Source: a virus | Lineage: Duplodnaviria; Heunggongvirae; Uroviricota; Caudoviricetes | DNA: 4,260 nt | IMG/VR virus record: IMGVR_UViG_2778261504_000021 | Coordinates: 1-4,260 of that record | Strand: one strand, 5' to 3' | In this document: piece after piece, positions 2,395 through 2,704 of the stretch | How the letters are laid out: each line of letters starts with the position of its first letter | Numbering within the stretch: the first letter of the stretch is position 1 | Program-made: the position numbers and the translations under genes | Notes under the pieces: model-generated | The model's database searches: none | Told to the model about the DNA's origin: nothing | What the model saw: only the letters and a program-made list of their open reading frames with translations

Positions 2395-2470
2395 GGCCCT
2401 TTAGCTCAGTGGTGAGAGCGAGCGACTCATAATCGCCAGGTCGCTGGTTCAAATCCAGCAAGGGCCACCA
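2395..2470 (+). tRNA. tRNA with CAU anticodon, ileX-like (tRNA-Ile2 reading AUA after lysidine modification, or tRNA-Met); 76 nt with encoded CCA
   Basis: Manual cloverleaf: acceptor GGCCCTT/AAGGGCC, D-stem GCTC/GAGC, anticodon stem with loop CTCATAA (anticodon CAT at 2428-2430), T-stem GCTGG/CCAGC with loop TTCAAAT, discriminator A, CCA. Close to my recollection of E. coli ileX. Confidence 0.8.
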
Positions 2471-2471
2471 A

Positions 2472-2548
2472 CCGCCACTAGCTCATCAGGAAAGAGCGTC
2501 AACCCTTTAAGTTGAGTGTGCGAGGTTCGAGTCCCCGGTGGCGGTCCA
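2472..2548 (+). tRNA. Atypical tRNA (77 nt), anticodon loop CCUUUAA giving a formal anticodon UUU (Lys-like); possibly a degenerate or specialised tRNA
   Basis: Perfect acceptor stem CCGCCAC/GTGGCGG, D-stem GCTC/GAGC with a 9-nt D-loop, perfect 5-bp anticodon stem TCAAC/GTTGA, T-loop TTCGAGT, discriminator T and CCA. Position 33 is C instead of the near-universal U, and the T-stem has one A-C mismatch. Isotype is uncertain. Confidence 0.55.
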
Positions 2549-2550
2549 GT

Positions 2551-2626
2551 GCCGACTTAGCTCAGTAGGTAGAGCAACTGACTTGTAATCAGTAGGTCAC
2601 CAGTTCGATTCCGGTAGTCGGCACCA
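2551..2626 (+). tRNA. tRNA-Thr (anticodon UGU), host thrU-like, 76 nt with CCA
   Basis: Acceptor GCCGACT/AGTCGGC, D-arm GCTC-AGTAGGTA-GAGC, anticodon loop CTTGTAA (TGT at 2584-2586), T-loop TTCGATT, discriminator A, CCA. Very close to my recollection of E. coli thrU. Confidence 0.85.
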
Positions 2627-2629
2627 TAT

Positions 2630-2704
2630 GCGGGTATCGTATAATGGCTATTACCTCAGCCTTCCAAGCTGATGATGCGGGTTCGATTCCCGCTGCCCGC
2701 TCCA
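2630..2704 (+). tRNA. tRNA-Gly (anticodon UCC), host glyT-like, 75 nt with CCA
   Basis: Acceptor GCGGGTA/TGCCCGC (one G-U pair), anticodon loop CTTCCAA (TCC at 2663-2665), T-arm GCGGG-TTCGATT-CCCGC, discriminator T, CCA. Matches my memory of E. coli tRNA-Gly2 apart from one acceptor-stem base. Confidence 0.85.

Follow-up and report, generated by a model that had tools for sequence, protein, structure and literature searches.

A prophage tRNA array with a host-derived thrU-glyT pair and a probable role in supplying decoders for AUA, ACA and GGA codons

The four-gene tRNA array studied here is probably a tRNA supplement cassette, assembled from two modules and supplying decoders for codons of phage and accessory genes. 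The first module would be the ileZ and argN-type pair that is also found in Stx phages. The second would be a piece of the host operon, thrU-tyrU-glyT, taken up as genomic DNA, from which tyrU and both spacers were later lost to leave thrU-TAT-glyT. Three of the products would be minor, low-copy decoders of the host, namely tRNA-Ile2 for AUA, tRNA-Thr(UGU) for ACA and tRNA-Gly(UCC) for GGA, and extra copies may raise the decoding capacity for codons that the phage overuses, above all in its AT-rich accessory genes. The remaining gene, second in the array, would be a mutated Arg(UCU)-type gene, probably a poor or non-functional decoder, which may be kept since its tRNA-like body sits in the processing unit.

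The window, by which we mean the whole 4,260-nucleotide stretch of DNA that was analysed, is by its gene content the late regulatory region of a lambdoid prophage. The array lies between the genes for antiterminator Q and holin S, all on the + strand. The features are as follows.

Window start, before Q: tail of a DUF968 gene.
141-521, + strand: antiterminator Q gene, 126 aa (Pfam Phage_antitermQ, E = 2e-51), the start of the late regulatory region.
602-1048, reverse strand: lipoprotein moron.
Between the lipoprotein moron and the AraC-family regulator: a small ORF.
1653-2366, + strand: AraC-family (YdeO/GadX-like) regulator, a moron (Pfam HTH_AraC/HTH_18), directly upstream of the array.
2356-2384, + strand: sigma-70-like promoter TTGATT-17-TATTAT (consensus scan, 9 of 12 matches).
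2395-2470, + strand: tRNA-Ile2 gene, anticodon CAU (ARAGORN; Rfam 72.5 bits).
2472-2548, + strand: atypical tRNA-like gene 2 ('X'), anticodon UUU at position 35 (ARAGORN; Rfam 44.4 bits).
2551-2626, + strand: thrU copy, tRNA-Thr(UGU), predicted to read ACA (K-12 alignment; Rfam 73.8 bits).
2627-2629, + strand: TAT junction between thrU and glyT (comparison with host flanks).
2630-2704, + strand: glyT copy, tRNA-Gly(UCC), predicted to read GGA and GGG (K-12 alignment; Rfam 63.4 bits).
2706-2888, + strand: three long hairpins, between the array and the terminator-like site.
2912-2936, + strand: intrinsic-terminator-like hairpin GCCCGC-TTTT-GCGGGC with a T run (the hairpin itself at 2912-2927, six G-C pairs).
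2997-3212, + strand: P21-type holin S (Pfam Phage_holin_2_1, 1e-35).
3217-3531, + strand: DUF1327 gene (Pfam DUF1327, 5e-39).
3587-4120, + strand: lysozyme R (Pfam Phage_lysozyme, 1e-24).
After lysozyme R: start of Rz.

The lysis cassette at 2997-4120 (+) constitutes the late genes downstream of the array. The NCBIfam matches of the AraC-family regulator to YdeO and GadX fall under the cutoffs of those models; its gene is rich in array-cognate rare codons.

An earlier note, made from the letters of this DNA, had described four tRNA genes with anticodon CAU, an atypical one, UGU and UCC, separated by 1-3 nt. ARAGORN and Rfam agree with that description: ARAGORN reports four + strand tRNA genes at 2395-2704, no more and no fewer, and the spacers are A (2471), GT (2549-2550) and TAT (2627-2629), that is 1, 2 and 3 nt. 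The RF00005 scores listed above (E-values 4e-15 to 2e-7) all exceed the gathering threshold of the Rfam tRNA model, 29 bits. All four genes encode the CCA end. Genes 1, 3 and 4 have a canonical 7-nt anticodon loop with U33; gene 2 does not. Minimum free energy folding of the single sequences gave a near-cloverleaf for the Gly gene only, a common outcome for unmodified sequences.

Signals that could delimit a transcription unit flank the array. The promoter-like site, TTGATT-17-TATTAT, ends 10 nt 5' of the first tRNA gene and is a candidate array promoter by consensus match only. Its TATTAT hexamer is conserved at an equal distance from the array in 933W, PPompW and PhiR47_1, and the 933W record annotates a putative tRNA promoter, pT, at the corresponding position. 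On the other side, the hairpin at 2912-2927 is the best terminator-like site of the window; again a consensus match only, it would stop transcription of the tRNA unit before the holin gene is reached. In 933W a comparable hairpin stands after argO, and the record marks it as a possible terminator. We suppose that the array would be transcribed from its own promoter, and so also in the lysogen, and that after induction Q-modified polymerase arriving from upstream would transcribe it as well. RNase P would then cut each 5' end, and exonuclease trimming would free the tRNAs, given spacers of 1-3 nt.

By place and by sequence likeness the array is one more case of a familiar kind, the tRNA genes that lambdoid phages carry downstream of Q. 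The ileZ-argN-argO genes of Stx phage 933W, and those of other Stx-converting phages, occupy the same slot, downstream of Q and upstream of the late genes; our statements on these three genes rest on the 933W record and on alignments. The first gene is identical in the two arrays (ileZ), the second is homologous (argN scaffold), and the TATTAT hexamer and terminator hairpin are alike. The third gene of 933W is argO (UCU), whereas the window instead has the host-derived thrU-glyT pair; the second gene has the canonical loop CUUCGAA (UCG) in 933W and CCUUUAA in the window; and the spacers are 9-13 nt in 933W against 1-3 nt here. In phages SfI, Sf6, ST64T, PS3 and P21 a tRNA gene for Asn (GUU), for Thr (UGU) or for both follows Q, and an ACA codon bias is reported (PMC3636060). 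They share with the window the slot and a tRNA-Thr(UGU), likened by anticodon and place, and differ in the partner, which is Asn there and Ile2, X and Gly here. Comparison with other prophage arrays, which the earlier note had proposed, divides the array in two: genes 1 and 2 are the ileZ/argN-type module common to Stx phages and not host-like captures, while genes 3 and 4 are host copies.

Gene 1 (2395-2470) is identical to ileZ of 933W, and matches the host genes ileY and ileX at 70 and 68 of 76 positions. Its acceptor stem holds the pairs C4:G69 and C5:G68, which we take to be TilS determinants. PGAP names it tRNA-Ile in array-carrying genomes. On the identities with ileX, ileY and ileZ and on the PGAP name, the basis of the class assignment, gene 1 is a tRNA-Ile2, predicted to read AUA after lysidine modification, and not a tRNA-Met.

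The last two genes had been recognized from the letters as near-copies of host thrU and glyT, and alignment to the host locus gives identities of 100% and 98.7%. Gene 3 (2551-2626) matches K-12 thrU at 76 of 76 positions, and gene 4 (2630-2704) matches K-12 glyT at 74 of 75, the sole change being C6T, which makes a U6.G66 pair. The best non-cognate comparison for the two copies, with thrT, reaches 72%. Both thrU and glyT are presumably single-copy genes for their anticodons in E. coli. The E. coli operon thrU-tyrU-glyT-thrT(-tufB) has the two genes in the same order and orientation; according to RefSeq annotation a tRNA-Tyr does lie between them, as the earlier note had it. Absent from the window are tyrU, the 8-nt and 116-nt spacers and thrT. 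Homology of the window to the host operon stops at the mature tRNA ends save for 1-2 nt, and the TAT spacer corresponds to T, the base that follows thrU in the host, plus AT, the two bases that precede glyT, although for a 3-mer drawn at random the chance of fitting some split of this type, of which there are four, is about 6%. At the level of alignment, host derivation of the last two array genes is demonstrated.

How the pair came together was followed by scanning viral contigs for thrU followed by glyT within 30 nt, which gave at least 80 loci. Among the matches listed the junction is TAT in 78 of 80, TAAT in one and TGT in one; from this predominance it follows that the junction arose once. 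Upstream contexts vary. Among the matches listed, ileZ and X precede the pair in 22 loci and Ile and Arg(UCU) in 12; in 34 the pair stands by itself, preceded by another promoter and a long leader hairpin. Stronger evidence than the 3-nt match in the window comes from two related prophage contigs (L141 and L142), which carry ileZ-X-thrU and then the host 8-nt spacer TCAAGTCC and nucleotides 1-35 of tyrU. The run of thrU, spacer and tyrU start is 119 nt identical to K-12, with unrelated DNA after it, and therefore thrU entered the array as host genomic DNA reaching into tyrU. Capture followed by deletion, as first suggested from the missing tRNA-Tyr gene, is thus borne out by these two contigs and by the match of TAT to the host flanks; capture of thrU-tyrU-glyT and then differing deletions is supported as the simplest history. 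Alternatively, L141 and L142 could record a separate, later recombination with the host operon, their DNA being host-derived either way. In viral contigs no prophage intermediate with the host sequence 5' of glyT still in place was found, and in complete E. coli genomes no thrU-tyrU' junction of the L142 type, its first 119 nt matching the host operon only. No microhomology at the deletion endpoints accounts for the TAT junction.

The tRNA-precise boundaries had suggested capture of processed tRNA through an RNA intermediate. We rejected this as the primary route because relatives keep host intergenic DNA and a tyrU fragment.

The copies have continued to change in a way that respects the fold. 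Among the matches listed, 28 of 80 glyT copies have C6T together with G66A, restoring a U:A pair, and three have G48A together with C64T; the window copy, with C6T and without G66A, is a one-step intermediate. These compensatory double changes point to selection for a folded tRNA, and the Thr and Gly copies appear to behave like working tRNAs.

Codon usage was examined in the complete phage PhiR47_1, which carries the same array, against two K-12 core-gene sets (46 and 33 genes; about 26,000 codons). Per 1000 codons, ATA stands at 7.5 in late and 7.5 in early genes of PhiR47_1 and at 2.3-2.6 in the host sets, ACA at 13.5 and 11.3 against 4.0-5.4, and GGA at 12.6 and 13.4 against 5.5-5.7. The earlier note had expected AUA, ACA and GGA to be enriched in phage late genes; they are enriched, 2.2-3.3 times, but not specifically there, since early genes are equally skewed and morons most strongly. 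Within codon families the odds ratios for the three are 2.5-4.1 (p from 1e-8 to 4e-11), and they rank 4-7 of 61 codons by enrichment, with only rare Arg codons higher. For the rare Arg codons, whose enrichment is greater still, the array in this version provides no working decoder. AAA, also put forward for counting, is not enriched in PhiR47_1, and its share of Lys codons is below that of the host; codon supply therefore fails for gene 2. For AUA, ACA and GGA, codon supply appears to be the best-supported function of the array, bearing in mind that codon enrichment is a correlation and that all rare codons ending in A are more frequent in AT-richer mobile DNA.

The skew is strongest in the window morons and in NleG effector genes of an array-carrying prophage. 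In the three window morons together, ATA makes up 37% of Ile codons, ACA 30% of Thr codons and GGA 27% of Gly codons; in the NleG genes ATA is 42% of Ile codons. It could be supposed from this that the array is expressed constitutively, mainly to boost, in the lysogen, the translation of horizontally acquired genes rich in rare codons (effectors and AraC-like regulators, for example), and not phage late genes. Besides the skew in the morons (AraC-like and lipoprotein) and NleG genes, such a role would suit the promoter-like site directly upstream of the array, which is independent of Q, the persistence of the array in degraded prophages, for example one full of IS elements and pseudogenes (L002), and its wide carriage: at least 80% of the 341-nt array region is present in 602 of 5426 complete E. 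coli genomes (about 11%). However, structural and early phage genes have the same codon skew at high significance, intact inducible phages such as PhiR47_1 keep the array, and its location inside the late operon fits use by the phage. We regard this explanation as distinctly unlikely; it is moreover a variant of supplementation for phage and accessory genes together, which we prefer, and not an exclusive alternative to it.

Gene 2 requires separate treatment. The earlier note called it atypical, and so it is: position 33 is C where U is near-universal, the T stem contains an A.C mismatch, and no gene of the array scores lower against the tRNA model. Its acceptor, D and T arms are common to argN (UCG) of 933W and to the tRNA-Arg(UCU) found in second place in related arrays. 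Against the Arg(UCU) form the anticodon stem is the same, and the loop, with C at position 33 and anticodon UUU, is CCUUUAA against CUUCUAA, that is, U33C and C35U. The discriminator is U73. Rfam tRNA scores are 56.4 bits for the Arg(UCU) form, 54.8 for argN and 44.4 for the window gene, and annotation pipelines call it tRNA-Lys or skip it. On these alignments gene 2 is a mutated gene of the Arg(UCU)/argN family and not a normal tRNA-Lys, so that the widely annotated 'tRNA-Lys' is probably mis-named. Because of the C33/UUU loop and the T-stem mismatch, the gene is probably impaired.

Relatives in the second slot have gone further. The PPompW copy has a D-stem deletion, and three other lineages have anticodon loops of 5-6 nt; these, together with the copy of Yersinia phage YeP1, were not reported at the Rfam gathering threshold. 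The body stems, by comparison across nine lineages, are paired at 100% of acceptor and D positions and 91% of T positions, and five pairs are changed on both sides, a number equalled in only 1 of 500 shuffles. With few sequences, and those related to one another, this does no more than suggest that selection conserves the body stems.

These properties, and the anticodons of the array, bring in a different kind of explanation. P2 OLD blocks lambda by destroying host tRNA-ThrU, its primary target (PMC12445682); the site at which PARIS AriB cuts tRNA-Lys(UUU), Thr(UGU) and Asn(GUU) is U36AAUC|A41, and with the change U39A no cut is made (PMC12409363). Escape from anticodon nucleases is possible for phage tRNAs (PMC10264068, PMC11555353). 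The target of PrrC is a Lys tRNA. The array might then be an anti-defence cassette that replaces or replenishes tRNAs destroyed by P2 OLD, PARIS AriB or PrrC, with gene 2 as a nuclease-resistant UUU decoder on a foreign scaffold. We consider this unlikely for the array as a whole, weighing the following.

Two anticodons of the array, UGU and UUU, are those of the host tRNAs that OLD and AriB mainly attack (PMC12445682, PMC12409363). In this the array resembles the nuclease-resistant tRNAs of lytic phages, such as the T5 Lys, Thr and Asn tRNAs against PARIS, a phage tRNA-Thr against P2 OLD, and mycobacteriophage anticodon-loop variants (PMC12409363, PMC12445682, PMC10264068). Gene 2 reads U36AAGUU and so is without the AriB site, U36AAUCA. 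Other lambdoid phages have Asn(GUU) and Thr(UGU) downstream of Q with no Asn codon bias (PMC3636060). Two thrU copies outside the window (L015 and L020) have independent G42/T43 changes that destroy the CAG motif and leave a shorter anticodon stem, resembling those that make a phage tRNA-Thr resistant to OLD (PMC12445682). Unlike these, the thrU copy of the window is host-identical, hence cleavable, and extra host tRNA-ThrU gives little or no protection against P2 OLD (PMC12445682). Neither glyT nor ileZ is a known nuclease target, and AriB left tRNA-Met(CAU) uncut (PMC12409363). We rejected an anti-defence role for genes 3 and 4 as unlikely, because the thrU copy is host-identical and an additional host ThrU would protect little or not at all.

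For gene 2 an anti-nuclease role is a candidate in principle; C33, the T-stem mismatch and the decay series among relatives argue instead for an impaired gene. The U73 discriminator likewise speaks against a nuclease-resistant decoder, and relatives with 5-6-nt loops or the D-stem deletion, lying below the tRNA threshold, look more like decay than adaptation. A bolder reading starts from the constant body and the anticodon loop that varies by lineage, which would also suit an anti-defence role: the second-slot gene would encode a tRNA-like RNA whose body is selected while its loop diversifies (UCG, UCU, CCUUUAA, 5-6-nt), and the window form would be a nuclease-insensitive UUU decoder, or a decoy, against defences that target Lys tRNA (PARIS AriB, PrrC), and not a decaying pseudogene. 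We hold this to be quite doubtful. If true, temperate lambdoid phages would join a tRNA arms race that has so far been demonstrated with lytic phages.

Integration into tRNA genes is common among phages, and the array could be a neutral passenger, functionless tRNA genes left from aberrant excision or recombination at tRNA-gene attachment sites. The partly degenerate look of gene 2 and the truncated tyrU remnant in relatives would fit. Yet the array sits in the middle of the genome, with Q on one side and the lysis genes on the other, and not beside int or att; its genes are complete, with CCA encoded; glyT shows compensatory double substitutions; the module is conserved in prophages of Escherichia, Shigella, Citrobacter and Enterobacter; and the codons that the array serves are among the most enriched. 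With so much against it, a passenger origin without function seems very improbable.

Under the preferred explanation, supplementation by two joined modules, the array offers a clean and datable case of how a temperate phage may assemble a tRNA cassette: an operon segment is taken, trimmed to the mature tRNA ends and fused to an older phage module. The captured tRNAs would be the host's low-copy decoders of codons overused by the phage and by virulence-associated accessory genes, which may bear on how effectors encoded by prophages are expressed in roughly one in ten sequenced E. coli. In practical terms the gain is modest, since for Stx and Shigella phages elements of this sort, and the role proposed for them, are textbook knowledge.

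In the array-carrying E. coli genomes counted above, PGAP names the four genes Ile, Lys, Thr and Gly. Isolated phages with the array are PhiR47_1, vB_EcoM-606R7 and vB_EcoS-689R5. The thrU-glyT junction occurs in E. coli, Shigella flexneri, E. ruysiae, Citrobacter braakii and Enterobacter hormaechei (one genome per species). Among complete E. coli genomes the widest coverage of the whole window is 73%, so that none reaches 80%, and the window is therefore a mosaic with an unusual gene combination.

A structured 290-nt spacer separates the array from the P21-type holin. The region 2705-2940 has a minimum free energy of -83.1 kcal/mol (z = -6.3 against shuffles), and its hairpins at 2706-2888 have no Rfam match at E <= 1. 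This hairpin region is 94-100% identical in 37 loci, where it accompanies the Thr-Gly module, and several of its stem pairs are changed on both sides.

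The Thr-Gly module of the array, the host-derived thrU-TAT-glyT pair, is followed in the window by a structured region, and the two are kept together across 37 related loci:

2706-2888: three long hairpins between the last tRNA gene and the terminator (MFE z = -6.3)

Several stem pairs of these hairpins have changed on both sides (among them 2713/2754, CG to TA, and 2779/2821, TA to GC). A search of Rfam gave no matches for the hairpins; they may serve as a site for RNase III-type processing or form an unnamed sRNA. Arrays consisting of Thr-Gly alone (contigs L032, L025, L137, L130 and others) have on their upstream side a strong promoter-like region as well as a long hairpin that is conserved. 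This leader hairpin (GGTTCTGAGGGG...CCCCTGAAGAACC, ~60 nt upstream of thrU) directly abuts thrU, and its pairing is preserved despite variation in Citrobacter; no Rfam family was found at the leader hairpin in L032.

Two related contigs retain part of the host tyrU gene. In L141 (about 2140-2263, - strand) and L142 (3164-3282), ileZ, the second-slot gene X and thrU are followed by the host 8-nt spacer and tyrU nucleotides 1-35. The tyrU breakpoint is identical in the two, yet their downstream sequences differ.

Individual genes of the array vary among relatives. Viral contigs L015 and L020 carry thrU copies with independent substitutions, G42T+T43C and G42C+T43C, that disrupt the CAG motif as well as the two uppermost base pairs of the anticodon stem; changes of this type are reported to protect phage tRNA-Thr against P2 OLD, the nuclease that destroys host tRNA-ThrU (PMC12445682). 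Another thrU copy (L075, 3483-3555, - strand) has its anticodon changed from UGU to UUU, together with A26G. It adjoins X, giving that array two genes with a UUU anticodon, and L075 is the one contig with such a thrU copy among the matches listed. The naming of X itself (window 2472-2548) is inconsistent across pipelines (records ON470580, ON470583 and NZ_LR134228): it is called tRNA-Lys by PGAP and in some phage records and is without annotation in others; the tRNA-Lys label is probably misleading. In the array of Yersinia phage YeP1 (L007, 2502-2800), a gap of 73 nt separates a degenerate X-type gene from a tRNA-Ile2-like gene (CAU) and tRNA-Gly(UCC). Compared with E. coli glyT, this Gly gene shows a compensatory change of an acceptor-stem pair, G5T/C67A.

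The thrU-TAT-glyT junction of enterobacterial prophages was also matched in a 423-bp contig from an assembly of the myxobacterium Corallococcus exercitus (L139, NZ_RAVW01000911.1). The record name states a coverage of ~0.67, and this occurrence is most likely contamination.

Upstream of the array the window contains accessory genes and regulatory sites:

564-583 (scored on + strand): terminator-like hairpin just past the 3′ end of the lipoprotein gene
602-1048 (-): predicted lipoprotein moron of 148 aa (phrog_3152), just past Q and on the opposite strand
1067-1038: promoter-like site belonging to the lipoprotein gene itself
1114-1198 (+): promoter-like site TTTACA-16-TATGCT, then a hairpin and an intrinsic-terminator-like site (1178-1190 and a T run)
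1653-2366 (+): AraC-family regulator gene (phrog_1450), YdeO/GadX-like with scores below the NCBIfam cutoffs

The AraC-family gene adjoins the array on its upstream side and is very rich in the codons ATA, ACA, GGA, AGA and AGG. It may be one of the prophage acid-resistance regulators of the PatE/Psr type. For the lipoprotein moron, no match was found in Pfam or NCBIfam. The sites at 1114-1198 are candidates for the late promoter pR' and the associated tR', in which case the lipoprotein moron would be placed between Q and pR'.
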